A DNA stretch of 64,000 nt. Origin: Ignavibacteriota bacterium. GTDB taxonomy: Bacteria; Bacteroidota; Ignavibacteria; UBA10030. Made by a program: the position numbers and the translations under genes. Under the pieces are notes generated by a model. The model did no database searches. It saw only the letters and a list, made by a program, of their open reading frames with translations, and was not told the origin of the DNA. The DNA is taken from contig CAVSHO010000001.1 in the NCBI GenBank assembly GCA_963727825.1, positions 352,001 to 416,000 of the forward strand. Direction: 5' to 3'. Of this stretch, positions 1 to 46,789 are shown piece after piece (the stretch's first letter is position 1; each line of letters opens with the position of its first letter).

Positions 1-396
1 ACCGCTTTTGCCCGCGATGTTGTGCGTGGCGTCCATCCGGAATGGGTGCGCAATTTGTATGGCTTTGCAGTTAAGCCGGATATCGGATTTTATTTTAAAG
101 TACCGATAGAAGTTTCCCTCAATCGTATTTTAACAGGCAGAGTGGAATTGAAATTTCATGAAGCCGGAATGGATATGGGCCTCAGCGAAGATCCGAAGGA
201 AAGTTTTCGGTTGTTTCAATCCAAGATACTTGAAGAATATGACAGGATCGCAGCGGAATTCGGTTTGAGTGTTATCGATGCGACCCTTTCTATTCAAAAA
301 CAACAGACAATGGTTCGCGAGATCATCAGAGAGAAGTTGAAAGATTATGAGCCCACGCCATTCCTAAGAAAGAAGGAAAATGTCTATGTTGCATAA
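1..396 (+). CDS. Thymidylate-kinase-like (dTMP kinase fold) protein, 5' truncated by the window; probable subunit of a Tmk-like polyphosphate kinase pair
   Basis: Frame is open from base 1 (TAFARDVVRGVHPEW...). Clear similarity to the next ORF (TAFARSIVRGADSQW; EAGMDMGL vs ESGMDLHL). Confidence 0.8.
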   Translation, partial: TAFARDVVRGVHPEWVRNLYGFAVKPDIGFYFKVPIEVSLNRILTGRVELKFHEAGMDMGLSEDPKESFRLFQSKILEEYDRIAAEFGLSVIDATLSIQKQQTMVREIIREKLKDYEPTPFLRKKENVYVA

Positions 397-1147
397 AAAA
401 AATGTGTTTTATGGTACCGGGCTGCCTTATGTTGATGCTCATGAAATGAAGGGAAAACTCATTGTCATTGAAGGCACAGATGGAGTAGGGCGATCAACCC
501 AAATTGAATCATTAAAGAAATGGCTCGAGGTTAAAGGATATGGAGTTGCGACAACCGGATGGACTCGCTCGCCGCTGATGGGCAATGCAATTGATGAAGC
601 GAAATCGGGCCACACACTCAACGTAAACACCTTTAGTCTATTATATGCTGCAGATTTTGCCGATCGCCTAGAGCATGAAGTGATTCCTGCATTGAAGGCA
701 GGGTTTATTGTTCTCGCAGACCGCTACATTTATACAGCGTTCGCCCGGTCGATAGTCCGTGGTGCAGACTCACAGTGGATTCGAAAAGTCTTTGGTTTTG
801 CACTTGTGCCTGACGCAGTATTTTATATGCGCGTGCAAATTGAAGATTTGATTCCCCGTGTAATCAACAGCAAGACATTGAATAGACGCTATTGGGAAGA
901 AGACTTAGGCGAAGGAATGGATTACTGGGAATCAGGTATGGATCTGCATCTCGGAGAGGATTTTTACGACAGCTTTATGGAGTACCAGAAACGTATTCTT
1001 CATGAATTTCACAAGATGTCCAAAGAATTCAGATTTCAGGTTGTGGATGCGTCACGTTCGTTTGAAGAAATCAATAGGGAATTAAAACAGGGGATATTAC
1101 TCATCCTAAATCATGAAAGATCCGAAGAAAAATCTAGCCGCAATTGA
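380..1147 (+). CDS. Second thymidylate-kinase-like protein
   Basis: GKLIVIEGTDGVGRSTQ P-loop (GRS rather than GKS/T) and Tmk DRY motif (VLADRYIYTAFAR); overlaps the upstream paralog. Confidence 0.85.
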   Translation: MSMLHKKNVFYGTGLPYVDAHEMKGKLIVIEGTDGVGRSTQIESLKKWLEVKGYGVATTGWTRSPLMGNAIDEAKSGHTLNVNTFSLLYAADFADRLEHEVIPALKAGFIVLADRYIYTAFARSIVRGADSQWIRKVFGFALVPDAVFYMRVQIEDLIPRVINSKTLNRRYWEEDLGEGMDYWESGMDLHLGEDFYDSFMEYQKRILHEFHKMSKEFRFQVVDASRSFEEINRELKQGILLILNHERSEEKSSRN

Positions 1148-2669
1148 TATCGGAACAAATTCCTTCCATCTCATTGTAGCCGAAGTCAATACTGAGACGG
1201 GGCGGTTTAAAATTCTTGGAAAAGAAAAAGAAGTTGTCCGTTTGGGGTCTGGTTCGACGGATATGAAATATCTTTCCGAGCTTGCTATGAACCGTGGTAT
1301 TGAAGTCCTAAAACGATTTCGTATTGTTGCGGATGCTTTTCAAGCAGATGTGCGGGCAATTGCCACGAGCGCTGTACGCGAAGCGATCAACAAACAGGAT
1401 TTTGTTCGCCGCGTGAAGATAGAAACCGGAATTCGGATAGAAATTGTCTCCGGTTTCGAAGAGGCACGGTTAATTTATTTAGGCGTGTTGCAGGCGCTGC
1501 CTGTGTTTCATAATAAAATACTACTTGTTGATATCGGTGGAGGCAGCACCGAGTTTCTCATCGGGGAAAAACGGTCTATTTACTTCAGCAATAGCCTAAA
1601 ACTTGGAGCAGTCCGGTTAACAGAGCGATTTTTAGAATCAGGGAACCTCAGCCGGAAAACTGTCGAAGAATGCAGAAAATATGTGCGCGGATTTCTGGTT
1701 CCGATTATTCGCGATGTAAAAAAACAACAGTTCGAGGTTTGCATCGGAACTTCTGGTACTATCAACAACCTGGCAAATATTATACGAACAAATCGTGGTG
1801 AGGCAATTGAGCTTCCATTAAACAATGTTTCTTTCTCACGGGCAGAATTACTTGAAACTGTTAAGAATATACTCACGTTTATAACGCCCATCGAAAGAAT
1901 GGAAATTGAAGGATTAGATCCCGACCGTGCTGATATTATGCCTGCCGGAGCTATCATTCTTGAACAAATTTTTCTGGCACTGGGTATAAAAATATTAACC
2001 GTTTCGGAATATTCATTACGCGAAGGAATTCTTCTCGACAGCATAGAAAAAATGCACACGAAGAAGCCGTCTGTGTATCTCCACAATCTTCGACGGAGCA
2101 GTGTTCTTCATTTGGCCGAGATTTATCATTATGAAAAAAAACATGCGCATCACGTGAACGCCTTGGCGTTGCAACTGTTCGATCAGACCAAATATCTCCA
2201 TAAACTCAATGGACAGGCGCGTGAATATCTTGAAGCAGCGGCAATTCTCCATGAAGTAGGATCATTCGTTTCGCATACACAGCATCACCGGCATTCCTAT
2301 TACCTGATTAGGAACGCAGAACTGTTTGGCTATACAGAAAACGAGAAAGAAATTATCGCGAATGTTGCACGCTATCATCGTAAGAGCCATCCTAAGATAA
2401 AACATGAGGGATACAATCTTCTTTCAAACGAAGATAAGATATTAGTATCTAAACTTGCCTCCCTTTTGCGTATTGCTGATGGTCTCGACCGTTCGCATGC
2501 CTCACGAATCCAACAATTGAAGGTACGCAAGATTAGTCGAAAACTTCGTGTCCGGGTTTATCATGCATCAAAAGTCAAGCCGGATTTAGAATTGTGGGGT
2601 GCGAACCGGAAGAAGCAATTGTTTGAAATTGTTTTTCGAAAAAGAATTGAATTTGTAGCAGTATCTTAA
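1113..2669 (+). CDS. ppx: Exopolyphosphatase Ppx/GppA with C-terminal HD domain
   Basis: AAIDIGTNSFHL, ATSAVREA, EEARLIYLG, DIGGGSTE, LREG, and HD-region LHEVG / ARYHRKS / LRIADGLD. Confidence 0.93.
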   Translation: MKDPKKNLAAIDIGTNSFHLIVAEVNTETGRFKILGKEKEVVRLGSGSTDMKYLSELAMNRGIEVLKRFRIVADAFQADVRAIATSAVREAINKQDFVRRVKIETGIRIEIVSGFEEARLIYLGVLQALPVFHNKILLVDIGGGSTEFLIGEKRSIYFSNSLKLGAVRLTERFLESGNLSRKTVEECRKYVRGFLVPIIRDVKKQQFEVCIGTSGTINNLANIIRTNRGEAIELPLNNVSFSRAELLETVKNILTFITPIERMEIEGLDPDRADIMPAGAIILEQIFLALGIKILTVSEYSLREGILLDSIEKMHTKKPSVYLHNLRRSSVLHLAEIYHYEKKHAHHVNALALQLFDQTKYLHKLNGQAREYLEAAAILHEVGSFVSHTQHHRHSYYLIRNAELFGYTENEKEIIANVARYHRKSHPKIKHEGYNLLSNEDKILVSKLASLLRIADGLDRSHASRIQQLKVRKISRKLRVRVYHASKVKPDLELWGANRKKQLFEIVFRKRIEFVAVS

Positions 2670-2807
2670 ATGAAATGCAATTGTGTTAGGTACATTTTGA
2701 AATATTTATTGGACTCTGTAAATATCTGTGTTGTAGCTGTGAACCTGTCTGTTAGATTGTATCCTGAAACTTCAATTACCTGACAAACAACTTGATTGTA
2801 CACTTCT

Positions 2808-3299
2808 CTATGAAATAGATTGCAAGAAGCGCTGTCTAAACTGCTCCTCTTCCCATTGGGAAAATTTCTTACAGAGAGAAAGAAAGTTTTCATGCCGTTC
2901 CTTTTCAAACCTTTGTATTAAAATGCGGAGCCCTGTTGTCGGTATCTTCAGTGCACGATCATTGATGCCTGCATTGAAATGGCGAACTTGCCGGACATGT
3001 TGTCTGAGGATTGGAAGATTGATATCGAGATCATGTATACGGCCTAAGATACCGAGGATCTGTTTGACGGAATTGAGGCAATCCTCAAATTGTGAACCAT
3101 ACGCCGGCAGATACATTTCCATCGCATATCGCACTCGCTTTCCACGCAAACGCAGAGCATGAAGGGTTTCCTGATGATGTTCGTTCAAGATCACAGGATC
3201 GATTCTTGTCAAGAAGGAATCTAATATGGGTGGGAGAATCTCACGGCCGTTGCTGCGTAATGTCAATTTATTCTTCGAGGAGGTGGCTCTCTTTTTCAT
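2808..3299 (-). CDS. CHAD-domain protein, half resembling the second (C-terminal) helical bundle
   Basis: LHALRLRGKRVRYAME and LGRIHDLDI motifs. ATG at 3299 overlaps the upstream TGA (ATGA), with GGGGA just upstream. Confidence 0.8.
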   Translation of the reverse strand: MKKRATSSKNKLTLRSNGREILPPILDSFLTRIDPVILNEHHQETLHALRLRGKRVRYAMEMYLPAYGSQFEDCLNSVKQILGILGRIHDLDINLPILRQHVRQVRHFNAGINDRALKIPTTGLRILIQRFEKERHENFLSLCKKFSQWEEEQFRQRFLQSIS

Positions 3300-3772
3300 C
3301 GAAGGGATCCCCAAATGAATTCTTCGAACCGCCGCTTAAACCCGGTGCGTATGAGTTTTCGGATTTCTGCTTTCATGACTTTACGGTGTAACTCGCGTAT
3401 AGTTCGCTCCTGTGCCACAAGCCATTGTAAAGCAATCTTATCTTTGGTTGGGATGTCTTTGATAAGATTTTCCAATTCTTCTTGCAAAACATCGATTTCC
3501 CGTACCGGTCCAAAAGCATTAATAAGTTTCTCAATCTCTTCTAACTGATAACGCAATTGTTTTTTAGGAAAGAAATTTTTATGAATCTTCAATGTAGCAC
3601 GAAGGCGACGGGCTGAAACTCGCATGTTATGGAGCGCCTCTGGATCAGTCCCTTTAACTGTCTCAGATTCGTATGAAAGCATTTCCTGCATCCATCCTAG
3701 TAGCGTTCTTCGAAGCGAAACTTTGAGTGGTTCGTTCGGATCAAGATCAACAATTTCCAATGGTCTTGCCAT
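3296..3772 (-). CDS. CHAD-domain protein, half resembling the first (N-terminal) helical bundle
   Basis: DPEALHNMRVSARRLRATL and FGPVREIDV motifs; ATG at 3772 (MARPLEIVDLDP). Confidence 0.85.
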   Translation of the reverse strand: MARPLEIVDLDPNEPLKVSLRRTLLGWMQEMLSYESETVKGTDPEALHNMRVSARRLRATLKIHKNFFPKKQLRYQLEEIEKLINAFGPVREIDVLQEELENLIKDIPTKDKIALQWLVAQERTIRELHRKVMKAEIRKLIRTGFKRRFEEFIWGSLR

Positions 3773-3974
3773 AACAAGAGTAATGTAGATAAAAGATTGC
3801 AAAAGATAAAATGGAGAACTGGTCAAGTCACAAAATCAAAGAACTCATGTACGATGAAATCAAATTTGATAAATGAATACAATGTATTTATCTTGTGAAG
3901 TATTAAGTTGGACTATCGTTAGCATTAATTAACAAGGACAGTTTTTACATGAAGAACGGGAGAAGAGAACAACA

Positions 3975-4346
3975 ATGACAAACAAAGTTGAAATCAAATG
4001 GTTGCGCGAGCCAGAAGAACATGACTATCCAGCAGCACTGGCCTACTTGTCTTTGATTGAGGATGAAAAGAAAGCCACAGAACTTGTCAATAAATTGAAA
4101 AGAGCATCGATTTCAGAATTTAAGGCCAAAGATATTTTTAGAGCGTCAGATTTATCCTTATTAGGGATTGGTAATTCTCATATTATAAAAGATCAACATA
4201 AAATAAAATCGGGTCATGAACTATCGCCTCTCCTCCTTGTAAGAGATCCGGATAATGCAAAAGTTATTATTGCAGATGGATATCATCGATTATGTGCGGT
4301 TTACTCTTTCGATGAAGATGCCGTCATTCCTTGTAAAATTGTGTAA
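3975..4346 (+). CDS. Small stand-alone ParB/sulfiredoxin N-terminal-fold protein
   Basis: SPLLLVRD...VIIADGYHRLCA matches the ParB/Srx DG.HR motif; 123 aa with no HTH. Confidence 0.7.
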   Translation: MTNKVEIKWLREPEEHDYPAALAYLSLIEDEKKATELVNKLKRASISEFKAKDIFRASDLSLLGIGNSHIIKDQHKIKSGHELSPLLLVRDPDNAKVIIADGYHRLCAVYSFDEDAVIPCKIV

Positions 4347-4423
4347 ATGCATACACTTTTCTTGTGCATCGAAAATGATCTTATCATTCTTTGTTTTAAA
4401 ATCATTAGCTTGGAGCCACCTTT

Positions 4424-4870
4424 ATGAACTGGTCGCTTTTTCTTCCTTCGGTGTCCGATGACTACGAAGGCTCTCCCATTGCCTTCTATTTCTTGGTGCT
4501 GGTCGCTATCGTTAGTACGATCCGCAGTTTTATTCATATATTTGCCATTGACGGTGGGGCAAACTCCATTGCGGGCATAGCGATCAATTTGGCTGGCGGT
4601 TCCAACATTGTTGCGATTTTTGGACAATGGGGTGCAAGCCAACTTCTCCTTGCTCTCTTCTACTGGTTGGCGATTATACGTTATCGGTTTCTAGTTCCTT
4701 GGATGCTGGCAATTGTTTTCCTCGAACAAGTTTTACGAATTGGAGTTGGTCATCTTAAACCCATCGAAGTATCCACATTGCCCCCCGGAGCGATTGGAAG
4801 TTACATCCTTTTGCCTCTATCATTAATTGCTTTAATATTATCCTTGGTGCAGAAGTCTAAAGCTGGATAA
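4424..4870 (+). CDS. Hypothetical integral membrane protein (about 4 TM)
   Basis: 148-aa ORF with four hydrophobic segments; GGAG upstream of ATG. Confidence 0.7.
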   Translation: MNWSLFLPSVSDDYEGSPIAFYFLVLVAIVSTIRSFIHIFAIDGGANSIAGIAINLAGGSNIVAIFGQWGASQLLLALFYWLAIIRYRFLVPWMLAIVFLEQVLRIGVGHLKPIEVSTLPPGAIGSYILLPLSLIALILSLVQKSKAG

Positions 4871-5060
4871 TCGATGCCTCTCTGTCTGCTAAAAGAGTGT
4901 AATGAATTTATTTAATTGCGTTGCACAAAAAACAGTCGCACTCCTAATGTGACAAGCAAGCAACCTGGATCAAAATATTTTCCATCTCTGCTAAAGCCAC
5001 TTATTCCCTTAAATTATATTGCAAGACATTGTCATAGACAATGAGGATCATAAAAATCAG

Positions 5061-5132
5061 TTTACATTCCCATGATAACTTCTATACAAAAACATGATAA
5101 TCTGACCACATATTTGATACGCCGTCATAATA
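5061..5132 (+). promoter_or_regulatory. Pho-box-like array of seven hexamers at 11-bp spacing, upstream of the TonB receptor operon
   Basis: TTTACA 5061, ATGATA 5072, TATACA 5083, ATGATA 5094, ACCACA 5105, GATACG 5116, ATAATA 5127. Adjacent palindrome CATTGTC-ata-GACAATG at 5027-5043. Confidence 0.55.
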
Positions 5133-5339
5133 ATTAAAAAACATACCGCAAGTATATTGTATCCGTATTTTTTCGACTCCTATTATTTAAATATAGAGGT
5201 GGATTACGTTATCTCACAAATTTTTTCCGTGTGAATTCTTGGTATTTAGCCGCAGTCAATCACACAATAAAATTTCCGGCAGCCGCATTTGGTCAGCTTT
5301 CTTTGATTTAAACACCGTGCTCATTTAACTCATACGAAT

Positions 5340-8129
5340 ATGGATTTACAAATTATGGTTCGTCTGAATGCTGCAATTATTTTTACTGCGCTCTGCGTTG
5401 TCAGCTTGTATGCCGGCTCGATTCGCGGTACTGTACGTGACAAAGGAACGAACGAGCCTATCGTAGGAGCAAATGTCTCGTTACTGGGAACAGGCATGGG
5501 AGCAGTGACGAATGCTTCGGGTGAATTCTTCGTATCCATGTTTAAAAGGACGTACACTATTCGAGTGAGCATGCTGGGGTATGAACAGTATGAGAGCAAG
5601 GTTGTTCTTCCGGAGGATACTGCGGAAGTAGTGCTTGAAATTTATCTTAAGGAAAGTCCCATTGGTGTCGGCGAAGTTGTGGTTCGGGCGCGCGCAAATA
5701 GAGAACTCGAGGCCGCTGGCATTCGTACGGAGTTTGAGTCGAATAACATCATCAATGTAATTACCGCTCAAACGATCGAGCGCTCAACAGATCGGACTGC
5801 AACAGAAGTGCTTCAGCGTGTCTCAGGTCTCTCGATCATTAAACAGAATGGAGAAGGTCACGCCGTCGTTATGCGTGGATTAACCCAGCAATATAATAAC
5901 ACACTTGTGGACGGCATTAAAATTCCAAGTCCGGAATCAAAAGACAGATTTATTCCTCTCGATATCTTTCCATCGTCCTTATTCGAACGGATCGATGTCA
6001 CAAAATCGCTAACAGCTGACCTTCCCGGTGATGCAATAGGGGGAACAACGGATCTCGTCATCCGACGTGCACCTGAATCCTTTATTCTCCAAGTGAGCGC
6101 TGCAACGGGCTATAATTCTTCAGTACAGAATAATCCCTTTATGACATTTGATGCGAGTACAGTCCAGGAGCTTGATCCAGATCGGCTTCATCACATCGTT
6201 GATCAGGAAAATCCAACTGCCTTTACCAAAGATGCATATGGGCGTTTAACAGTGTCACCATCTGATTTCTCAGTCAACAATCTCAAGTTTACATATAAGA
6301 ATAGTCCAATAGATGGTTTGTATTCTCTCGTCGTAGGTGACCGCTTTCTCGATTCACGAATCGGCATCATAGCCTCCGGTGGCTATCAAAACACGTTCAA
6401 TCGGTCACAAACAGATGTTTATAGTATTGATGGTGGAAATATAAATAATAGTTGGAATGCGACCGATGCATCAGTTGACGACCAGACATATTATACACAT
6501 AAAATGCGAAGCGGAGCAACTGTCAAAGCCGACTTTATTATGGCTATCGATCAGCAATTTTCAGTGACATTCATTTACAATAATCAAACGACGGAATTGA
6601 CGAGGAATGGCATTTCAACAACCCTTAACGGTACTGTTGGTGCCGCGACCATTATTGGTACCTATCGTTCTGCACTTCAAAAACAGACTATAGCAAATTA
6701 TTCCATCTCAGGCGATAATTTTACGTCATCACCCATCTCTGTGCACTGGATAGCAAATTATTCCGATGCACAACAGGATCGTCCGGATGATGCTGAATAT
6801 TCCTTGTTGAATCACCCTGATAGAAATGGGAATATCCCAACTGTGTGGGGCACTGGCAATGTTACTCATTCCTGGCGATGGAATGATGACCGTCAGTACC
6901 TTGTCAATGTGGATTTTACGTACAAATTAACCTCAGACGAAACAAATGTTATCCATACAGGCGGAGGTTATACAGGACTTAAACGTGCAAATTTCGAAAA
7001 TGATTTTACATTAGTCCCCGCGCTTGATCCTACTACCGGACGGACGCCACCCTTCACTGTAATTGATAGCATGAAATTTGTCCCTAATGCAGCGATCGTC
7101 GGAAATCCAGTGTTTAATTATCAGAATTACAAAGCACAGGAAGCACTGTTATCAGGGTATTTTGAATACACATTAAACACCGGCGCTTTTCAGGCACTTG
7201 CAGGTATTCGATGGGAACAAGCAACGGACCAGTTCTGGACCGCTGCTCCCATTAGTGATAGATATAATTCGGACACGGTAAAATTCATAGACTTATTGCC
7301 AAGTGCGCACATTCGCTATGCATTCAGCTCAGAACATATTATGCGCCTTTCTGTCACAAAAACTATGAGTCGGCCAAGTTATTTTGATCTTGTTCCTGCT
7401 CAAGACGTGGGAGACGTTAATGTAAACAAAGGGAACCCTGACCTGAAGGCCGCACACTCAACCAATGTTGACCTGCAATATGAGTATGTCACTTCTACTA
7501 CCGATCAGTTCTCTATTACTTTTTACAAAAAACACATTACCGATGCAATCCAGAAAAGCGTATCCGGTTCCACGGTAACATCTACAACCATGACCAATGG
7601 CCCTCCGGCGGATGTCTATGGAGCTGAAATTTCTGTTCTTGTGCACATCGGGAATTTTGGCATCTCCGGAAATTATGCTCAAGCCTATTCACGTACAACC
7701 GATCAGGTCACTATCGTAACGATCGGGACCGATATGTGGGGCGAAATTGGACCTGTTAACACGTACGTCACACGAACTCGTCCGCTTCAAGATCAGTCCC
7801 CGGTTCTCGCAAATGCAACTCTCTCTTATGGGAATAAGCTATGGGGCACCGGCATGCAGGTTTCATACAATTACACCGGCAGACGGCTCGTTGGCGTCGG
7901 TAGCCAGGACGGATTAGATGTCTATGAAAATGGCGTTGGAGATATGGATTTCTCTGCAGATCAGATCATACTACCGGGCCTTAAGCTTTCAGTGAAGCTC
8001 TCTAATATTTTAAATTCTGTCGTTGTGCGAGAAGCTCCATCCGGTGCATGGATGATCCATGTGCCCCTCCTTGTTGAACAGGATTATAATAAATTCCGCG
8101 GTACTATCGGGATCAGTTTTCTTTTATAA
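5340..8129 (+). CDS. TonB-dependent outer-membrane receptor with N-terminal carboxypeptidase-regulatory-like domain
   Basis: Signal peptide; GSIRGTVRDKGTNEPIVGANV; plug (EVLQRVSGLS, MRG, DAIGG); GNPDLKA; amphipathic C-terminal strand. Confidence 0.92.
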   Translation: MDLQIMVRLNAAIIFTALCVVSLYAGSIRGTVRDKGTNEPIVGANVSLLGTGMGAVTNASGEFFVSMFKRTYTIRVSMLGYEQYESKVVLPEDTAEVVLEIYLKESPIGVGEVVVRARANRELEAAGIRTEFESNNIINVITAQTIERSTDRTATEVLQRVSGLSIIKQNGEGHAVVMRGLTQQYNNTLVDGIKIPSPESKDRFIPLDIFPSSLFERIDVTKSLTADLPGDAIGGTTDLVIRRAPESFILQVSAATGYNSSVQNNPFMTFDASTVQELDPDRLHHIVDQENPTAFTKDAYGRLTVSPSDFSVNNLKFTYKNSPIDGLYSLVVGDRFLDSRIGIIASGGYQNTFNRSQTDVYSIDGGNINNSWNATDASVDDQTYYTHKMRSGATVKADFIMAIDQQFSVTFIYNNQTTELTRNGISTTLNGTVGAATIIGTYRSALQKQTIANYSISGDNFTSSPISVHWIANYSDAQQDRPDDAEYSLLNHPDRNGNIPTVWGTGNVTHSWRWNDDRQYLVNVDFTYKLTSDETNVIHTGGGYTGLKRANFENDFTLVPALDPTTGRTPPFTVIDSMKFVPNAAIVGNPVFNYQNYKAQEALLSGYFEYTLNTGAFQALAGIRWEQATDQFWTAAPISDRYNSDTVKFIDLLPSAHIRYAFSSEHIMRLSVTKTMSRPSYFDLVPAQDVGDVNVNKGNPDLKAAHSTNVDLQYEYVTSTTDQFSITFYKKHITDAIQKSVSGSTVTSTTMTNGPPADVYGAEISVLVHIGNFGISGNYAQAYSRTTDQVTIVTIGTDMWGEIGPVNTYVTRTRPLQDQSPVLANATLSYGNKLWGTGMQVSYNYTGRRLVGVGSQDGLDVYENGVGDMDFSADQIILPGLKLSVKLSNILNSVVVREAPSGAWMIHVPLLVEQDYNKFRGTIGISFLL

Positions 8130-8224
8130 ATCACGAACACCAAGCATAAATTAACAAAAGAAAAATCATGAAAGTATTATTAAACCAATCTCATCCAACA
8201 TATCAATTTTCTACAGGAGGATTT

Positions 8225-9673
8225 ATGCGTACCTTGCTTGTACTAATTCTGCTTACATGTTGTTCCGCTTTACAGGCACAGACAATCTCGTCTGGACCAT
8301 TATCAGGCCATATTAGAGGAACGACGCTTCCTAATAAATCTTATGTCATTACAGATTCTATTGTTGTTGATGCAGTTGACTCCCTTCGGATCAGCGCTGG
8401 TGATACACTGATCATGCAAAGTGTAAACGGTGCGATGTTCGCTTTCGGGAATTTTTATTGTGAAGGCACATCCACAAGTCCCATTGTCATCACTGTTCCG
8501 GCTGCACGTCGCACGCTTGGCCCCGGTCAATGGGGCGGAATAGTGATAGATTCACCTAATGTCTTCAGTATGAAGTTCACTCATATTTACTGGGCAGGAG
8601 GATCGGATCTTACTGGTCATGCATATCGGACGGTCAATATTGTCTCGGGCTATTTGCACAACACGGTAACGACATTCACGGATAACTGGATCACTGGCAC
8701 GGTTGATGATGCCATCGGAATCACCGGCGGTAAAGTCAGCCTTCTGCGAAACGTTTGCAAATGGTGCGGTTCACCGGATGGCGATAATCTCAATATTAAA
8801 AGTGGTGTATGGGGTGAAATCGCGTACAACGTCATCTGGGGACCAGGCGGAAATGGTATTAAGGTCAATGCCAGTTCCAAAACACGTATAACAAATGTGT
8901 GCATTCATAACAATACGATCACTGCCGGCGGCTGGCGCCGTCTTGGAGAACCTGGCTATTGCATTCTTTTGGATGCAAGTGCCCGTGCGGAAATTTATAA
9001 CAACGTATTCGGCGATTGCTATAATGATCTCGAAATCACAACAGCAGCGGATACCGTAAACACAGTGTACGATAATAATTTCTATTTTGGCTCTGTTGAC
9101 AGCTTGAACAAAGCGAATATTTTTTGGGCGCCGGATGGCGTTGCGCGTAAACAAGCGCATGATAAATTTATGGCCGGTAATGCAACTGGGTCTCCGTTTG
9201 TGAAGTTTAATGATTACTTCACTAATACTTGGGCTGCTCTCGATGCTGATAATAATTATCTGTTGAGTGCAACCTATAAGAACCTGGGATTCACGCCCCC
9301 CAGTAGTTGGACGAATCCCGGGATAACCGGCACCCTTCCTGGCGATGCCAATGTCGGAGCACTTGGTGCATCCACAACCGGTGTCAACAATAGCTTGACG
9401 AACGAACCAACGGGTTTTGCACTTAAACAGAATTATCCGAATCCCTTCAACCCATCGACGACAATCGGATACGCTCTTCCGCACGATGGCTTGGTTACAT
9501 TGACTGTCTTTAATCTTCTCGGACAATCTGTTCGTATACTAGTCAACGGTGTGCAGGCAGCAGGCGCTCACGCTGTTCGATTTGATGCATCGACTCTGCC
9601 CTCAGGAGTATATCTGTACAAGCTCCAATCTGGCGGAATGAGCAATGTCGGTCGTATGATGCTTTTGAAGTAA
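8225..9673 (+). CDS. Secreted right-handed beta-helix protein with T9SS type A C-terminal sorting domain
   Basis: AGGAGG before ATG 8225; signal peptide; GQWGGI and DDAI motifs with Asn-rich repeats; C-terminal FALKQNYPNPFNPSTTI...SGVYLYKL...MLLK. Confidence 0.85.
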   Translation: MRTLLVLILLTCCSALQAQTISSGPLSGHIRGTTLPNKSYVITDSIVVDAVDSLRISAGDTLIMQSVNGAMFAFGNFYCEGTSTSPIVITVPAARRTLGPGQWGGIVIDSPNVFSMKFTHIYWAGGSDLTGHAYRTVNIVSGYLHNTVTTFTDNWITGTVDDAIGITGGKVSLLRNVCKWCGSPDGDNLNIKSGVWGEIAYNVIWGPGGNGIKVNASSKTRITNVCIHNNTITAGGWRRLGEPGYCILLDASARAEIYNNVFGDCYNDLEITTAADTVNTVYDNNFYFGSVDSLNKANIFWAPDGVARKQAHDKFMAGNATGSPFVKFNDYFTNTWAALDADNNYLLSATYKNLGFTPPSSWTNPGITGTLPGDANVGALGASTTGVNNSLTNEPTGFALKQNYPNPFNPSTTIGYALPHDGLVTLTVFNLLGQSVRILVNGVQAAGAHAVRFDASTLPSGVYLYKLQSGGMSNVGRMMLLK

Positions 9674-9720
9674 ATGAAAAGTAGAAAATTGGTTTGCTAT
9701 TTTATATAGGTATATAGGGA

Positions 9721-9756
9721 GAACGGCGGTACAGCCTAAGGGACGTGCCGCCGTTC
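9721..9756 (+). terminator. GC-rich stem-loop between the beta-helix gene and the phosphatase gene (weak terminator or mRNA-stabilising hairpin)
   Basis: GAACGGCGGTAC...GTGCCGCCGTTC inverted repeat; no clear U tract. Confidence 0.45.
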
Positions 9757-9797
9757 ACTGAATCAATCCATTTAATTATTACGATAAGGACTAAGTT

Positions 9798-10796
9798 ATG
9801 AATCGCTTTCGTTTTTTATTAATTACCATACTCATTCTATTTGCAGCATCTTTCACCAGACTTCAATCTCAATCAGCAATTGGAAATCCCAATCATTTGT
9901 TGCTCGGCAAAGGATCATTAAATTTTCTTGTCATCAGTGATTGGGGCAGAGAGGGTATCGATGACACAGATAAGAAAGCACCCGGTCAACTGAAGGTAGC
10001 AAGACAACTTGGAGTTACTGCAAAAATGGTCAAAGCGTCGTTTGTTGTTTCATGTGGCGACAATTTTCATGGACATGGGGTATCCAGCAGTACGGATTCT
10101 CTATGGAAAGTGAATTTTGAGAATGTTTACAATGCGAAATCATTAATGATTCCATGGTACATAGCACTCGGTAACCATGATTATGCAGGTAACGCAGATG
10201 CAGAACTTGAGTATGCAAAGACAAGCAAGAGGTGGGTAGAACCTGCGCGTTATTTCTCTTTCACTAAGAAACTTCATGGTTCAACGCGGGTTCTTTTTGT
10301 CATTCTTGATTCTTCACCCTTTGTCGAAGAATACATCAATGAAAAAAGCGATGGACATCATGTGAGTGGCCAAAAGATAGCAGTACAACTGCGATGGTGC
10401 GACAGTGTGCTAAGCTCATCGAGCGCAAGTTGGAAATTCGTATTCTTTCATCATCCCGCATATTCCGCTTCTTCTAAACATGGCAGCACCGTGGAAATTC
10501 AGCGCGCGTTCGTTCCTTTGTTTGAAAAGTATCACGTCGATGCCTGCTTCTCAGGTCATGATCATGATTTACAACACTCACGCCCAGATGATGCAACTGT
10601 AGAATATTTTGGATGCGGCGGCGGTTCTGAAACAAGGCCTGCAGGGCAAGCGCCTTTTACGAAGTACAGTAATGCTTCTTTAGGTTTTGGAGTAGCCTCA
10701 CTGACTCAAAGTACAATAAGATTCAGCTTTGTCAACGAGAATGGAGAACAAATTTATGTATATGACATGCATAAGAGAACTGCCAAAGGGCAATAG
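9798..10796 (+). CDS. Exported purple/tartrate-resistant acid phosphatase-like metallophosphoesterase
   Basis: Signal peptide; DWG, GDNF(H), GNHD, HHP and GHDH motifs. Confidence 0.88.
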   Translation: MNRFRFLLITILILFAASFTRLQSQSAIGNPNHLLLGKGSLNFLVISDWGREGIDDTDKKAPGQLKVARQLGVTAKMVKASFVVSCGDNFHGHGVSSSTDSLWKVNFENVYNAKSLMIPWYIALGNHDYAGNADAELEYAKTSKRWVEPARYFSFTKKLHGSTRVLFVILDSSPFVEEYINEKSDGHHVSGQKIAVQLRWCDSVLSSSSASWKFVFFHHPAYSASSKHGSTVEIQRAFVPLFEKYHVDACFSGHDHDLQHSRPDDATVEYFGCGGGSETRPAGQAPFTKYSNASLGFGVASLTQSTIRFSFVNENGEQIYVYDMHKRTAKGQ

Positions 10797-10876
10797 TTGA
10801 AACGTTCGGTAACAACAATTAAGCTGCTTGACCTAATGTTTGTATTAACAGTATACTACTTTCTTAAGGGGAACAT

Positions 10877-11305
10877 ATGACACATCTAAAAGAAATCATT
10901 AACGCTATTGGTGCTCATGGAAACTGGAAACAACGTCTTCGGCGAGCAATAGAAACAGGGAATAGTGATTTTACCGTTGAAAAAATAAGAGTCGATAATC
11001 AATGCGACTTTGGTAAATGGCTACATTCCTTATCTTCGGATGAAAAAAAGTCGTTTCATTGGACCAAAATTCAACAATTGCATGCAAAATTTCACATTGA
11101 AGCTGCCCGTTTATTCGAACTTGCAATACAAGGGAATCAAAAAGAGGCTTTGGATGCAATGGTCCTTGGAAGTGATTTTGCAAGATACTCCAGTGAATTA
11201 ACAATGGCAATGGTGCAATGGAAAAGATCATTAAAACAAACCGTCACCTTAACCAGATATCTAGACGCTCCTATTCTTTCCTATGACTTTGCCAATGATG
11301 TTTAA
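10877..11305 (+). CDS. Stand-alone CZB (chemoreceptor zinc-binding) domain protein
   Basis: AHGNWK, CDFGKWL and LHAKFH give the 3His-1Cys CZB ligand set. Confidence 0.85.
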   Translation: MTHLKEIINAIGAHGNWKQRLRRAIETGNSDFTVEKIRVDNQCDFGKWLHSLSSDEKKSFHWTKIQQLHAKFHIEAARLFELAIQGNQKEALDAMVLGSDFARYSSELTMAMVQWKRSLKQTVTLTRYLDAPILSYDFANDV

Positions 11306-11506
11306 TAATGAACTATAGAAGTGGAAACACGCTCCGCTTGTTTTGGGCAACATTGGAATTGGCCTGCATGCAGTAGTGCCTACGGCCTTTCCGCCGCACG
11401 CTTGCTGAAGGCGGGCACACAGGCAGATCACACGGCATCCCGATTTATCAGGAGGCCATCCGTTAGGCAACACAAAATGCATCAAAAATATATTCAGGGA
11501 GATTAT

Positions 11507-11734
11507 ATGAAACGGTATAAGAATCTTGCAGGTGACTCTAAGGTAATCGCATATGAATACGGCTCAGACTTTATACGGGTACAATTTAGAGACAACTCAG
11601 TTTATCGTTACACTTATGAAAGTGCTGGCAATGTCAATATTGAACAAATGAAAAAGTTAGCGAATGCAGGTCATGGACTCAATTCGTTCATTAATACGCA
11701 TGTTCGCAAGCTACAACAATTAAAAGAACGATAA
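11507..11734 (+). CDS. Small KTSC-like protein (75 aa)
   Basis: AGGGAG RBS then MKRYKNLAGDSKVIAYEYGSDFIRVQF...YRYTY...GLNSFIN. The longer ORF-track start at 11321 is unlikely. Confidence 0.75.
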   Translation: MKRYKNLAGDSKVIAYEYGSDFIRVQFRDNSVYRYTYESAGNVNIEQMKKLANAGHGLNSFINTHVRKLQQLKER

Positions 11735-11840
11735 ATACATCAGAGCTATTCAAATGCTGAAGGTTAACCACTGATAACTGTGGCAAACCAATACTCTAGA
11801 AAAAATGATACATAAACTATCACACATTAAGGAATAAACC

Positions 11841-12845
11841 ATGTCAAGCATACGTACACGATTGTTGATTCTCGGCACGCTCTATTGCTGTGCATTCCCA
11901 TTAGTCTTTGCTCAAGCCACACTTCCTATTGTTCTCGATACAATTGCTGTTGGAGGAACCGGAGGAATGGATTACATCACATGCGATCCGAAAATACATC
12001 GCCTGTATATCTCCCACGGCACTCGTGTTGAAGTCGTTCAGTACGATACAAAAGAGCATGTTGGAAGTATTGAGAAGACATCCGGTGTTCATGGCATAGT
12101 CCTCGCATCTGATCTCTCGCGCGGTTTCACAAGCAATGGTAAAGATGGCAGTGTCACCGTGTTTGACACCAAGACGCTGGCTGTTATTAAAACAATCGAG
12201 ACAAAGCAGCAGAAACCAGACGCCATTCTATTCGAACCAACGACGAAGCGCGTTTTTATTTTCAATGGCGATAGTGAAAACTGTACTGCAATAGATGCAA
12301 CGACGATGGAGATCGTCGGAACGCTGGCGCTTGGCGGTGGACCGGAGGCTCCTGTAGCGGATCGTAAAGGTGATATTTTCGTGAACATTGAAACGACCAA
12401 CGAAGTGGTCCGGTTCGATGCAGCATCGCTGAAGATAAAATCCCGCTGGCCAGTCGCTCCAGCACAAACACCAACAGGGATTTCGATGGATCGCGAAAAC
12501 CGAATTCTTTTCATCGGAGGAAGAAACCAGGTTTTTGTTGCAATGAATGCTGACGATGGTAAGATAATAGCAAGTTTTCCAATAGGGAAAGGTGTGGATG
12601 GCACTGCCTTCGACTCAAAGACAGGAATGATCTATGTCTCAAATAAAGACGGCAGCCTTGATGTGATTCAAGAAGAATCAGCATCGAAGTTTACTTCCGT
12701 TGGCAAACTCCAAACTTCTCCAGGAGCAAAAACACTTGCTCTTGATAACAAATTACACCGGGTATTTCTTCCTGCTGCCCGCCAAGTGGATGGGCCAGGT
12801 GGTATGAAGGGGGAGATGATGGTGCTTGTGGTAGGAGAACGATAG
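11841..12845 (+). CDS. Exported YncE/YVTN-family beta-propeller protein
   Basis: Signal peptide; GGMDYIT, VHGI, FTSNGKDGSVTVFD and PDAI repeats. Confidence 0.85.
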   Translation: MSSIRTRLLILGTLYCCAFPLVFAQATLPIVLDTIAVGGTGGMDYITCDPKIHRLYISHGTRVEVVQYDTKEHVGSIEKTSGVHGIVLASDLSRGFTSNGKDGSVTVFDTKTLAVIKTIETKQQKPDAILFEPTTKRVFIFNGDSENCTAIDATTMEIVGTLALGGGPEAPVADRKGDIFVNIETTNEVVRFDAASLKIKSRWPVAPAQTPTGISMDRENRILFIGGRNQVFVAMNADDGKIIASFPIGKGVDGTAFDSKTGMIYVSNKDGSLDVIQEESASKFTSVGKLQTSPGAKTLALDNKLHRVFLPAARQVDGPGGMKGEMMVLVVGER

Positions 12846-12917
12846 AATCGCGATGTGAAAATGAAGTGCCTCGGAATAATTTCCGAGGCATTCAATAATA
12901 AAAGGATACACTATTAT

Positions 12918-13388
12918 ATGAGAAGGTCATTTCAATTCTTGCCGATGACTTTAATGTTGTCTGGCACCGCGTTGGCACAAATCATCACGGCAAAACAAGT
13001 ACCACCTGTTGTGAAAGAAAATTTTCAAGCGAAGTTTCCAGCCATAAAACGTGCGCAGTGGAAATTCAAATCCGACAGAAACTATGAAGCCGAGTTTGCA
13101 CTGAAGGGAATAGAAATTGTAGCGAAATTCGATTCAACCGGTAAATGGTTGGAGACCGAATCCGCTGCATTTCGGTCTGCGGTTCCCGTAGCGGTATTAG
13201 ACACTATCTCCAGATACTTCAAGGCATATAAGATCGTCGAGATCCAAACCATATATCGCTGGAACGCGGAGTACGCGCTTTGGGAGATACATTTGGATGG
13301 TGCAAACGAAATCGTGAAAGCGCAGTTTGGCAACAATGGTCAGATAATAAGTCAATCCACAAAACCTAAATTTCAAAAAGAGAAGTAG
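12918..13388 (+). CDS. Periplasmic PepSY-like (BLIP-like) repeat protein
   Basis: Signal peptide; two repeats VPPVVKENFQAKFP...YEAEF...FDSTGKWLETE and VPVAVLDTISRYF. Confidence 0.75.
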   Translation: MRRSFQFLPMTLMLSGTALAQIITAKQVPPVVKENFQAKFPAIKRAQWKFKSDRNYEAEFALKGIEIVAKFDSTGKWLETESAAFRSAVPVAVLDTISRYFKAYKIVEIQTIYRWNAEYALWEIHLDGANEIVKAQFGNNGQIISQSTKPKFQKEK

Positions 13389-13407
13389 TACCATCCATAC
13401 CGACAAG

Positions 13408-13476
13408 TCAACATTCTGTTTACGAAATCTTCACATTCTTATCATCCTCCCGTAACACCAGAATGACATCTTAACA
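13408..13476 (+). promoter_or_regulatory. Pho-box-like array of six hexamers at 11-bp spacing, upstream of the EEP gene
   Basis: TCAACA 13408, TTTACG 13419, TTCACA 13430, ATCATC 13441, GTAACA 13452, ATGACA 13463, plus an off-phase TTAACA at 13471. Resembles the TT(A/T/C)ACA-N5 PhoP box. Confidence 0.65.
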
Positions 13477-13525
13477 ATATATTAAAGGAATCGAATTCAT
13501 ATTAATTCGTTTAAAAGAGGAATAT

Positions 13526-14614
13526 ATGAAGCAATTGCTCAGGGTATTTGCATGGATTCTGGCGGCACTCATTATACTGCTTATAGTTGGTTCGACACTT
13601 GATCACCTCGATGCGTTCAGCAGCAAAGACGCTTTGTATGGATTAGATTTCCTTCCAGCATTGTGGGTCAGTGCTATTGCGGTTGTACCGATCGTTCTAT
13701 TCTTTCTCTTTGGAAAAAAGAGAATTGCCTTTCTGTTATTAACCGTTGTTTGCATTTACACAGCGGCTTTTGGTGATTTCTCTCTTTCATTTCTTATTCC
13801 ACGAAACCGACCGCAATCTACCATAGCAAAAAAGATAACTGTCGTTGCGTTGAATGTTCAATATTATTCGCATGGCGTCAATGAAGTGATAGATGGTATT
13901 CTTTCTCTTGGGGCCGATGTGGCGCTCCTATCAGAAAACGACCTTTCTGATAGCCTCACTTCTGTTGTGAAGAAAAAAATTGCTCCAATGCAGATATGTA
14001 TGGGACATAAAAACAGCGTCGCTATTCTTTCACGATATCCAATTGTCGATTTTAAGGAAATAGAACTTCCAAGTTACGAGGCGTCTTTATCCGGGAGCAA
14101 CGATATCGATGATCTTTCCCGCCATCCTCACCGTTCGTTTGTGTACGCGCTCCTTAACGTTAATGGGACTCAAGTGAATGTTGTATCGATCAGATTTATT
14201 GCTGGCAGGCCAAAAAATAATACACTTGGGGAAAATTTACGTTGGGGAAGGTATCTTCTTGCAATGCAAATGGAGGAGGTTGATGCTTTTACCACGTACT
14301 TGCACGGACTTCATGGCCCGGTTATTTTTGGTGGCGACCTCAATGCACCACCATTATCAAAACCAATGCGTAAGATTCAATGCATGGCGACTGATGCCTA
14401 CATGGCTAATCATTTCTGGGGAGATTATACATTCCGTACTGAATTGCCCACGATGAGATTAGATTATCTCTTCAGCATAAACAACGTCATTCCTGATAAC
14501 GCTCGAAGACCGCATCTGACAGTTTCGGATCACTTTCCAGTGGTCGCTGATTTCTGGATTCCAATCATAGAAACGGTTCAAGCGACAAAAAGGGGCATCG
14601 TCTCTCTTTATTAG
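13526..14614 (+). CDS. Membrane-anchored endonuclease/exonuclease/phosphatase (EEP) family protein
   Basis: Three N-terminal TM segments; ALNV, DVALLSE, AILSRYPI, GGDLN, RLDYLF and SDHFPV motifs. Confidence 0.9.
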   Translation: MKQLLRVFAWILAALIILLIVGSTLDHLDAFSSKDALYGLDFLPALWVSAIAVVPIVLFFLFGKKRIAFLLLTVVCIYTAAFGDFSLSFLIPRNRPQSTIAKKITVVALNVQYYSHGVNEVIDGILSLGADVALLSENDLSDSLTSVVKKKIAPMQICMGHKNSVAILSRYPIVDFKEIELPSYEASLSGSNDIDDLSRHPHRSFVYALLNVNGTQVNVVSIRFIAGRPKNNTLGENLRWGRYLLAMQMEEVDAFTTYLHGLHGPVIFGGDLNAPPLSKPMRKIQCMATDAYMANHFWGDYTFRTELPTMRLDYLFSINNVIPDNARRPHLTVSDHFPVVADFWIPIIETVQATKRGIVSLY

Positions 14615-14645
14615 GGTAGCTGGTTCACGCAGCTTTTCAGAATAA

Positions 14646-15332
14646 TTACTTCAGCATTGTTACGAACGAATTGTCTAGCCAGACAGGCGCGTCATTGCTG
14701 TTGTTGAAGTATGTTGCTGTGCTATATGCAACAATCACACCTATTATGGATCCCGCGTAAATATCCACAAAAAAATGTTGTGACAAATAAACGCGAGAGA
14801 ATGCAATAATACAAGCGGCAATGAACAATAAGGGTCGTAGCAAGCGTTGCTTTGTCATCATGCATAAAAGTGTGCAGGTGGTAAAGATTGTTGCGCTGTG
14901 ACCTGATGGAAAACTATTAAAGGAATAGACTTCGACACCGGGAACAAGGTACAATTGATGAATCCCTTTAAAGAATTGACACGGTCGGAATGAATCGGAA
15001 AAAAATAATCTCTTTAGTAATTGAATAATAACAGAGCATGAAATATTACTTATCGCGAGCATCATTGCATATCGGAATCTGATAAATAATAAAATCAATA
15101 CCAATATTGTTGCACTAATACCGTCTCCTAAAAGAGTTGCATATGTAAAAAAGACATCAGCAGCAGACGAGTGATATTGATTGATAAAAAGGTGGATGTA
15201 TGCTTTCGGAATAAGAAGGAGGATGAATCCGCCGAAAAGGATAAATACATACATCCACTCGATAAATGGTGAACTATACTTGATCTGCTGAATAATTCTT
15301 TGTAAGAGTATTTGTCTTGAATGAATATTCAC
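14646..15332 (-). CDS. PAP2-family membrane phosphatase
   Basis: K-x6-RP (KRLFFSDSFRP), SFPSGH and SRVYLSQHF motifs; GTG start overlaps the upstream TGA. Confidence 0.9.
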   Translation of the reverse strand: MNIHSRQILLQRIIQQIKYSSPFIEWMYVFILFGGFILLLIPKAYIHLFINQYHSSAADVFFTYATLLGDGISATILVLILLFIRFRYAMMLAISNISCSVIIQLLKRLFFSDSFRPCQFFKGIHQLYLVPGVEVYSFNSFPSGHSATIFTTCTLLCMMTKQRLLRPLLFIAACIIAFSRVYLSQHFFVDIYAGSIIGVIVAYSTATYFNNSNDAPVWLDNSFVTMLK

Positions 15333-16045
15333 TGTACAGCCTGTTTTTCCTGAAATTTATATCCCACTCCTGGTACTGTTTCGATATAAGATGCGTATCC
15401 TTTAAGTTTCTTTCGTATGCGTCCGATGTGTACATCTATTGTACGGTTGGCTGAACTGTCGTAGTGACCCCAGATAGTATGAAACAACACCTGACGCGTC
15501 ACTACTCGTCCATGGTTTTTTGCAAGTTGTATAAGAATTTCAAATTCCCTTTTAGAAAACTCGACTTGTTCCTTTCCACAGATCACTGTAAATTGAGAAA
15601 TTAGAATCGATAAATCATCGATCGTGATTATATCATTCTCTCTATCCTGCATAGTTAGCTGTTGTTGATCTTGTCGTCTAAAAAGTGCGCGTATCCGGGC
15701 TTTCAAACGAGGTATTTGCAAGGGTTTAGCGATATAATCATCTGCACCGACTTCAAGACTAATAATTTCATCTATCTCTGTCTCCTTATTACTCAGAATG
15801 AATACAGGAACATCGGGCAATTCAGGTTTTTGTTTGACAACTCGAAGAAAATCCAATCCGTTCATATCCGGCAGCTGAGGATTAAGAATGATGAGGTCTG
15901 GAAAAAACTGCAAGTGGTTCAACGCTTCCCGGCCTGAAGAAGCGGTCGTCACGTAATACCCTTCCTGCGAAAGAACACTTGATAACATCGAAGATGTTTC
16001 TGTATCCAAATCAACGATGAGAATAGATTTACAAGCTATGGTCAT
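15329..16045 (-). CDS. OmpR/PhoB-family response regulator with atypical receiver (phospho-Asp replaced by Asn)
   Basis: PDLIILNPQLP where the canonical motif is DLIILD; GADDYIAKP; wHTH RTIDVHIGRIRKKL...IETVPGVGYKF. Confidence 0.88.
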   Translation of the reverse strand: MTIACKSILIVDLDTETSSMLSSVLSQEGYYVTTASSGREALNHLQFFPDLIILNPQLPDMNGLDFLRVVKQKPELPDVPVFILSNKETEIDEIISLEVGADDYIAKPLQIPRLKARIRALFRRQDQQQLTMQDRENDIITIDDLSILISQFTVICGKEQVEFSKREFEILIQLAKNHGRVVTRQVLFHTIWGHYDSSANRTIDVHIGRIRKKLKGYASYIETVPGVGYKFQEKQAVQ

Positions 16046-43824: not shown

Positions 43825-43842
43825 CAGGGAAAGGTTGACGTT

Positions 43843-44310: not shown

Positions 44311-44312
44311 TC

Positions 44313-44810: not shown

Positions 44811-44818
44811 GAGATAAA

Positions 44819-45547: not shown

Positions 45548-45664
45548 CCATTTGATGATGCCGAAGCTGATGAGTGCAAGGAAACAGCACGTCCTGAAAA
45601 ATTGGGATGGACTGATACTTAGACTTATCAGCTTTGCACATTTATGAGGGTTGGATTATAAATA

Positions 45665-46782: not shown

Positions 46783-46789
46783 AACGAAA

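Follow-up and report, generated by a model that had tools for sequence, protein, structure and literature searches.

Do two genes that carry the signature of thymidylate kinases encode a bacterial two-subunit polyphosphate kinase? This question is raised by the start of a 64,000-nucleotide stretch of DNA from an Ignavibacteriota bacterium (contig CAVSHO010000001.1, positions 352,001 to 416,000; hereafter the window), where two open reading frames (ORFs) with the thymidylate kinase (Tmk) fold, gene A (ORF1) and gene B (ORF2), precede the exopolyphosphatase gene ppx. On the evidence of homology, the order and motif states of the genes, their conservation and a modelled A-B interface, we consider it probable, with good confidence, that the window carries a bacterial two-subunit PPK3 operon, in which A is the catalytic subunit and B a helper subunit. 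What we infer for this operon is that its product acts as a polyphosphate (polyP) kinase, in which direction it works, that B is inactive and that the genes are co-transcribed. Its components are arranged as follows.

1..396, plus strand: gene A (ORF1), the 3' 131 codons and the stop codon, open at the 5' end; putative cPPK3-type catalytic subunit, assigned from Pfam, the PDB match and its place in the A clade
about 130..180, plus strand: lid segment of gene A with the EAGMD motif, read from the sequence
380..1147, plus strand: gene B (ORF2), putative rPPK3-like helper subunit of 255 amino acids (253 amino acids from the ATG at 386)
413..430, plus strand: N-terminal GTGLPY segment of gene B, read from the sequence
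473..499, plus strand: P-loop GTDGVGRST of gene B, with the Arg38 codon CGA at 491..493
719..727, plus strand: DRY motif of gene B, read from the sequence
about 863..919, plus strand: lid insertion of gene B (ORF2 residues about 162-180)
1113..2669, plus strand: ppx, a Ppx/GppA-family exopolyphosphatase of 518 amino acids with an HD-type domain III, assigned from Pfam and NCBIfam

The genes are tightly interlocked. ORF1 and ORF2 overlap by 17 nt, or by 11 nt when gene B is counted from the ATG at 386, the start chosen by gene callers (P0001, 253 amino acids), and ORF2 overlaps ppx by 35 nt. ORF2 matches the Pfam family Thymidylate_kin with 79.8 bits (2.8e-22). The ORF1 fragment reaches 22.5 bits (1e-4) and stays under the gathering score, because only its C-terminal half lies inside the window. 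The ppx product matches Ppx-GppA (2.9e-69) and Ppx-GppA_III (6e-35). The visible part of ORF1 starts with TAFARD, directly after the DRY motif, and its P-loop is invisible, as the N-terminal half falls outside the window. The full-length A protein (P0389, 237 amino acids), encoded on the same 468,878-bp contig and 100% identical across the 131 amino acids of ORF1, contains GIDGSGKST and CADRYIYTAFARD, and DRY is present. The proteins of gene A and gene B are 42% identical, and the lid of ORF2 carries a 12-residue insertion compared to A. An earlier reading of this DNA (the original prediction) had described two overlapping paralogous Tmk-fold ORFs that also overlap ppx near CHAD genes, with a Lys-to-Arg change in the P-loop of the second and an E(A/S)GMD segment in both. 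ORF calls, Pfam and the overlaps bear out this description, as do the CGA codon within GTDGVGRST and the motifs HEAGMD in ORF1 and WESGMD in ORF2.

The PPK3 family has been introduced by Höfmann et al. (JBC 2026, PMC12995831; preprint 10.1101/2024.08.28.610084, bioRxiv 2024). The catalytic subunit of Sulfolobus acidocaldarius, Saci_2019 (cPPK3), converts ATP into polyP and, by preference, runs in the other direction, using polyP to turn ADP into ATP, while the regulatory subunit Saci_2020 (rPPK3) is inactive alone and confers an approximately ten-fold gain in activity in a 1:1 complex with Saci_2019 (PMC12995831). dTMP kinase activity was found for Saci_0893, but for neither Saci_2019 nor Saci_2020, and the Sulfolobus PPK3 genes are grouped with ppx, sixA and a CHAD gene (PMC12995831). 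The original prediction had pointed to a pair of Tmk-like catalytic and regulatory polyP kinase genes beside ppx in S. acidocaldarius, in agreement with the published account.

For both ORFs of the window, the best PDB sequence match is STK_15430 (ST1543) of Sulfurisphaera tokodaii (2plr, 4nzy, 4rzx, 5h70), a protein deposited as a dTMP kinase and named as a cPPK3 homologue in PMC12995831. ORF2 aligns to STK_15430 with 146.3 bits (9.6e-42), while the best canonical Tmk gives 55.8 bits (4e-14). For the ORF1 fragment, the gapless match to 2plr and 5h70 has an E-value of 1.1e-21, compared to 0.089 for its best Tmk match. L001_A, the nearest full-length A orthologue among the matches listed, scores 202.7 bits (5.2e-59) against STK_15430 and 53.5 bits (2.3e-13) against the best canonical Tmk. 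A-type proteins share with STK_15430 the P-loop, the DRY motif, the EAG.D lid and a KKK segment in a nearly gapless alignment, and A has every catalytic motif of this cPPK3 homologue together with the same lid length. STK_15430 differs from the window proteins in being archaeal and 213 amino acids long, and ORF2 departs from it in the Walker-A Lys, the lid length and the basic residues. The kinship extends to the predicted fold. An AlphaFold2 model of ORF2 has a mean predicted local distance difference test score (pLDDT) of 78.5, with values below 50 in the lid (162-180), and in a fold search with this model eight ST1543 chains occupy ranks 1-8, followed by canonical TMKs; the TM-scores of the model against the ST1543 chains, normalised by target length, are 0.81-0.85. 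With STK_15430 far above the Tmks by sequence and ahead of them by fold, and with ppx and CHAD as partners, the pair appears to be a bacterial version of the Sulfolobus pair, as had been proposed.

The pair is conserved well beyond the window. A scan of species-representative genomes with ORF2 yielded at least 492 confirmed relatives, counted as species-level genomes, among at least 595 matched stretches, and a word-index protein search with ORF2 gave at least 8000 candidates at E <= 1e-5. Locus statistics were derived from the best 80 of the at least 492 relatives, which are 55-84% identical to ORF2 and belong to Ignavibacteriota, Bacteroidota, Acidobacteriota, Planctomycetota, Elusimicrobiota, Firestonebacteria, Omnitrophota, Nitrospirota, Binatia (Binatota) and other groups. 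An A-type ORF lies immediately upstream of the B-type ORF in 80/80 loci, and the pairing is therefore not due to chance. The ppx gene is present in 72/80 loci and adjoins the pair in 68/80, being adjacent downstream in 35 and adjacent upstream, the Sulfolobus order, in 33. It is located elsewhere in the locus in 4/80, two of these being artefacts of ORF extension, and is absent from the stretch in 8/80, two of which are short contigs. CHAD genes were detected in at least 24/80 loci by BLAST with the CHAD halves of the window, a lower bound. Loci of Nitrospira, a genus with PPK3-positive genomes in Data S1 of PMC12995831, carry the arrangement ppx-A-B, and the nearest relative among the matches listed is a metagenome-assembled genome (MAG) of Ignavibacteriota (84% identity for B, 89% for A). 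A sorting domain of the type IX secretion system (T9SS) encoded in the window is consistent with this affiliation. The pairwise identities between A proteins and between B proteins correlate with r=0.92 (70 loci), which shows only that the pair travels together, since related genomes would correlate anyway. No canonical tmk was present in the flanks of the 80 loci, and a tblastn search of PLSDB plasmids with ORF2 gave no match at E <= 1e-20.

Beyond the separate genes, natural A-B fusions in gene order were observed in P0470 (487 amino acids, with both P-loop types visible) and P0124 (460 amino acids). P0167 and P0156 are also fusions, with the A-type domain (GIDGSGK) in front of the B-type domain (G.DGVGR). 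A-like PPK3-type domains further occur singly within very long proteins, namely P0240 (2575 amino acids), together with InPase (inorganic pyrophosphatase) and ART-PolyVal domains, and P0195 (1237 amino acids), together with MFS_1 and DUF2252; other long protein matches likewise embed such a domain in a multidomain protein.

To describe the two subunits, we used a tree of 157 rows, comprising the 2 window proteins, A and B of 28/80 loci picked for spread, and 99 cluster representatives (from the 150 best 50%-cluster representatives, 51 of which were dropped as shorter than 200 or longer than 300 amino acids). As the tree was built by a quick search and drawn at the midpoint with no outgroup, only its A/B split is used here. 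This split separates an A side of 60 rows from a B side of 97 rows (SH-aLRT 98), and the ORF1 fragment is placed in the A clade together with K-type representatives. The same groups, namely Nitrospira, Binatia and the group of the window, recur on both sides. The P-loops follow the split: A proteins show GIDGSGK[ST] in 72/80 loci, the remaining 8 being fragments, and B proteins show G[TPS]DG[VA]GR[ST] in 78/80, with 2 unmatched. Among the 157 tree rows, 82 combine a Walker-A Arg with the DRX Arg and 52 combine a Walker-A Lys with the DRX Arg, while a Walker-A Arg together with a substituted DRX Arg occurs in none (0/157). Loss of the DRX Arg among the Walker-A Lys rows is restricted to P0213, P0226, P0185 and P0203, all on the A side.

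Two minor groups of the tree deserve separate mention. A Cys occupies the Walker-A Lys position in 4 B-side rows (P0137, P0166, P0200 and P0218). P0213 and P0226 keep the Walker-A Lys, with NKY replacing DRY; an assignment of these two proteins as archaeal rPPK3 was rejected, as their relatives are bacterial, e.g. Margulisiibacteriota. This bacterial subgroup shows a DRX-type degeneration as described for archaeal rPPK3.

Aligned jointly, 72 A and 79 B sequences show what distinguishes the subunits. The segment lADRYxYTAFaR is kept in both A and B. Five positions are basic in A only, with basic residues in 85% or more of the A and 20% or fewer of the B sequences: R59, position 60 and K63, all within the RGKKK segment, as well as K130 and the lid residue K156 (L001_A numbering). 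The reverse pattern is found at one position, R63 of B, where A has Ser. A proteins have a median net charge of +8 and B proteins one of −6, and B evolves faster, with a mean column identity of 66% compared to 79% for A. In the published family, a positively charged polyP cleft is kept in cPPK3 and not in rPPK3 (PMC12995831), a contrast that the A-only basic positions and the opposite charges match. B nevertheless has conserved features of its own: the P-loop residues G32, T33, D34, G35, V36, G37 and R38 are invariant in 33/33 rows, and DRY, DFADRLEH, YWESGMD and the N-terminal G-x-GLPY segment are kept. The original prediction had suggested that the subunit with the GRS P-loop may be the non-catalytic partner. 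The Walker-A Lys-to-Arg change, the loss of the basic residues of A and the opposite charge speak for this assignment, which stands as a probable one; the defect reported for archaeal rPPK3, a loss of the DRX arginine to which its inactivity is ascribed in both versions of the paper (PMC12995831; 10.1101/2024.08.28.610084), is absent from B, and in this respect the expected likeness did not hold.

The length of the B lid varies between lineages. In 80 sequences (79 locus B proteins and ORF2), it comprises 29 residues in 32 and 16 residues in 23, with 23 unmatched. In the subclade of the window (Ignavibacteriota/Bacteroidota-type), the lid is approximately 13 residues longer than in some relatives, with TLNRRYWEEDLGE preceding GMDYWESGMD.

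The heteromer proposed in the original prediction is compatible with structure modelling. In three runs of complex prediction with L001_A and the ORF2 of the window, accompanied by 3 controls, the A-B complex scored 0.70, compared to 0.00 for the best of the controls. The mark of 0.70 is attained by 116/157 solved complexes and by 2/215 mismatched pairs. Between the runs, 92% or more of the contacts coincide, and the partner has a pLDDT of at least 79. The predicted interface lies on the face by which Tmk proteins usually dimerise (residues 52-85 and 115-127 of A, 66-98 and 130-140 of B), complemented by B residues 12-17. Since Tmk homodimers are among the solved structures, this result may only reflect likeness to known complexes.

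Several points weigh against a PPK3 operon with a catalytic A and a helper B. The S. acidocaldarius enzyme is the only one with known PPK3 activity (PMC12995831), and enzymatic evidence is not known for any bacterial member. The tree contains neither canonical Tmk nor PPK2 nor the named Saci_2019 and Saci_2020, and L001_A stood in for the A of the window in the complex prediction, being 89% identical to it over the visible 131 amino acids. Furthermore, the DRX arginine of ORF2 is intact, likewise in the other B-clade rows with the motif aligned; B thus does not show the kind of degeneration described in print and might still bind nucleotide or turn it over. The last point bears on a rival explanation that we regard as unlikely but not negligible, according to which both subunits bind ligand and B acts as a sensor of nucleotide or polyP ends, or as a second catalytic site (e.g. 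with AMP as the acceptor), and thereby sets the direction or rate of PPK3. Such a role would agree with a P-loop that is otherwise complete and invariant from G32 to R38, with the intact DRY and DFADRLEH segments, with the invariant R63 that replaces a Ser of A, and with a Walker-A Arg that is fixed in 78/80 loci rather than drifting. However, the Walker-A Lys normally contacts the transferred phosphate, and its exchange for Arg in P-loop NTPases usually keeps binding and cripples transfer, which counts against such a role of B. B also lacks the five basic positions conserved in A, is acidic overall and evolves faster than A, and Saci_2020 is inactive when alone (PMC12995831).

Two further explanations dispense with polyP kinase altogether. 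We give hardly any credence to the view that the database names are right and that ppx is simply the neighbour of a pair of dTMP kinases or of broader (d)NMP kinases. The matches to Thymidylate_kin and to the NCBIfam model TIGR00041 at or above cut-off, and the deposition of STK_15430 as a dTMP kinase, would be expected from it, but canonical Tmks score approximately 90-150 bits under the cPPK3 homologue, the segment after DRY is TAFAR rather than SLAYQG as in S. aureus TMK, the pair is tied to ppx in 72/80 loci, and one of the two proteins is devoid of the Walker-A Lys. Very improbable, too, is a function of the trio in nucleotide alarmone metabolism instead of polyP metabolism, in which the Ppx/GppA protein would dephosphorylate pppGpp and guanine nucleotides would be the substrates of the kinases. 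The ppx product does match the GppA model NF008260 (9.6e-75) and falls under the cut-off of the exopolyphosphatase-only model TIGR03706 (282.8 vs 307), yet its best NCBIfam match is still an exopolyphosphatase. CHAD, a domain associated with polyP granules, adjoins the operon and recurs in at least 24/80 loci, and the one relative that has been characterised works with polyP, with a preference for ADP (PMC12995831).

We therefore favour the two-subunit PPK3 operon and postulate the following mechanism. Gene A would encode the cPPK3 orthologue, a P-loop kinase of the Tmk fold that shifts the terminal phosphate between ATP/ADP and polyP, not dTMP, and, as in Sulfolobus, making ATP out of ADP and polyP would be the favoured direction. 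The paralogue encoded by gene B is predicted to bind A through the usual Tmk dimer face and its own N-terminal GLPY segment. B itself most likely does not catalyse the transfer, because its Walker-A Lys is replaced by Arg and the basic polyP-binding residues of A are missing; it may instead activate or organise A, as Saci_2020 does for Saci_2019. As A, B and ppx overlap, they are probably expressed from one transcript, by which PPK3, making or using polyP, would be co-regulated with Ppx, which hydrolyses it. The neighbouring CHAD protein is probably located on the polyP granule. A scan of positions 1..5400 gave 18 promoter-like sites, compared to 13.2 ± 3.9 in shuffled sequences, and 6 terminator-like sites, compared to 4.4 ± 2.2; neither number is above chance, and the sites were not used.

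With regard to novelty, the PPK3 family is already described, and the window represents a further bacterial example, not a new kind of enzyme. The novelty implied by the original prediction is thus not supported: bacterial dTMPK paralogues make up most of the PPK3 clade, bacterial operons with both subunits beside ppx and CHAD have already been predicted, and all predicted PPK3 operons except one encode both subunits beside polyP genes (PMC12995831), a set that comprises ppx, CHAD, SixA, Pst and others. Among the publications listed from 2023 on, only the preprint and the JBC paper of Höfmann et al. deal with the Tmk-like PPK3 family, and no experimental work on a bacterial member turned up; several other publications apply the name PPK3 to a PPK2-type enzyme in biocatalysis. 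What the window adds is modest and threefold. One addition is the presence of the PPK3 pair in an Ignavibacteriota/Bacteroidota-type lineage that is PPK3-negative in the accessible part of Data S1, where 11/11 Ignavibacteriota rows and 2/2 Kapabacteria rows carry PPK3 = 0 and at least one PPK1, and where Leptospirillum, several Nitrospira and Chloracidobacterium validum are PPK3-positive (PMC12995831); through the window, the family accordingly gains a lineage without a positive score in this part of the table. Another is the spread of bacterial PPK3, which appears to be much wider than the "a few bacteria" named in the abstract (PMC12995831), with at least 492 species-level genomes carrying relatives. 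The third is a putative helper signature, Walker-A Lys-to-Arg with an intact DRX motif, unlike that of the published archaeal rPPK3. The main texts of both paper versions contain no mention of the Walker-A change, which the supplement may show. The fixed Walker-A Arg could serve as a simple sequence rule to separate the two subunits in bacteria, and R38K would provide a clean mutational handle on the role of the helper.

A bolder extension of these observations is, in our estimation, possible but doubtful. The bacterial helper could be a distinct, widely conserved pseudokinase, characterised by the fixed Walker-A Arg, the intact DRX motif, the acidic surface and the GLPY N-terminal arm, that binds nucleotide or the polyP end and acts as a sensor of energy charge, with archaeal rPPK3 having degenerated separately and PPK3 acting as a major enzyme of polyP across hundreds of bacterial species that are uncultured. 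If this were true, the helper would decide whether PPK3 makes or consumes polyP, and PPK3 would not be an archaeal speciality, with Nitrospira and Binatia among its carriers.

The annotation of the pair is of practical relevance. The original prediction had warned that the genes could be wrongly annotated as tmk, and this concern is justified: against the equivalog cut-off of 83.25 bits of the NCBIfam model TIGR00041 (dTMP kinase), ORF2 scores 86.5, L001_A 92.8 and a Nitrospira A protein 88.2, with L001_B below the cut-off at 81.3. Wherever source names are given for the relatives, they read dTMP kinase or thymidylate kinase, and no PPK3-specific model in NCBIfam 20.0 or Pfam matched these proteins. 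As many bacterial genomes label the pair as dTMP kinase and NCBIfam 20.0 provides no PPK3-specific match, the PPK3 route will escape any survey of polyP metabolism in which PPK1 and PPK2 alone are counted. This would be relevant to lineages of soil, peat and groundwater (Ignavibacteriota/Bacteroidota-type MAGs, Nitrospira, Binatia and Acidobacteriota), as well as to studies of phosphorus removal and biomining.

Downstream of ppx, and convergent with it, the CHAD protein is encoded by two ORFs on the opposite strand.

2808..3314, minus strand: C-terminal half of CHAD, 168 amino acids, covering Pfam CHAD model positions 167-223; convergent with ppx
3296..3826, minus strand: N-terminal half of CHAD, 176 amino acids, covering Pfam CHAD model positions 8-132

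Both halves match Pfam CHAD (6.7e-22 for the N-terminal and 3e-13 for the C-terminal ORF) and overlap by 19 nt. We compared this arrangement (2808..3826) with the loci L003-L018, L020, L025, L023 and L030. The split into two genes (about 157 and 164 amino acids) recurs in 14 related loci, while L023 and L030 contain a single fused gene of about 321 amino acids. A frameshift or sequencing error was ruled out by the recurrence of the same split in 14 loci and by the fused forms elsewhere, and CHAD is therefore a natural split gene.

Farther into the window, two plus-strand ORFs lie between the CHAD genes and a TonB-dependent receptor gene, one of 123 amino acids without a Pfam or NCBIfam match (3975..4346) and a hydrophobic one of 148 amino acids (4424..4870). 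The region 5340..16045 encodes the TonB-dependent receptor, a secreted protein with a type IX secretion system tail, two phosphoesterases (Metallophos and Exo_endo_phos), a PAP2 phosphatase and an OmpR-type response regulator, and may represent a phosphate-scavenging neighbourhood. At 43090..48496, an ExbB-ExbD-ExbD-TonB cluster precedes the genes of a PstS-like PBP_like_2 protein (45880..46779) and of a TPR protein. Among the 56 ORFs of the 64-kb window scanned with Pfam, no separate Tmk and no PPK1 or PPK2 was found. Some PPK3-positive Nitrospira of Data S1 also possess PPK1 and/or PPK2 (PMC12995831), and the absence of ppk1 or ppk2 is therefore no strict rule for PPK3 carriers.

Compared to known systems, the window proteins share with canonical Tmk (PF02223, TIGR00041) the fold, the architecture of P-loop, DRY and lid, and the dimer face. 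They differ from it by a similarity of only about 50 bits, another segment after DRY, the pairing of the genes and the linkage to ppx, and the characterised PPK3 relatives are, unlike canonical Tmk, without dTMPK activity (PMC12995831). The two-domain class II PPK2 of P. aeruginosa (PA3455) likewise combines an active P-loop kinase unit with an inactive duplicate for oligomerisation (PMC12995831). However, it belongs to another family of P-loop kinases, its units are fused, and its inactive unit is devoid of Walker B and not of the Walker-A Lys.

The closest counterpart is the PPK3 of S. acidocaldarius (SaPPK3). The window system is distinguished from it by its bacterial host; the heteromer is demonstrated for SaPPK3 by size-exclusion chromatography and, like the polyP kinase activity, predicted for the window pair. 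No SixA gene was seen in the 64-kb window, unlike in the SaPPK3 neighbourhood. The helper of the window keeps the DRX arginine and carries the Walker-A Lys-to-Arg change, in contrast to the rPPK3 of SaPPK3, and the lid in its subclade is approximately 13 residues longer. The order ppx-A-B(-CHAD) of SaPPK3 is matched by relatives in Nitrospira and Binatia, whereas the window has the order A-B-ppx with the split CHAD gene convergent downstream. Common to both systems are two tandem paralogues of the Tmk fold in an operon with ppx and with CHAD nearby, one of them with the full catalytic motifs and a basic surface, the other degenerate and without those basic residues.

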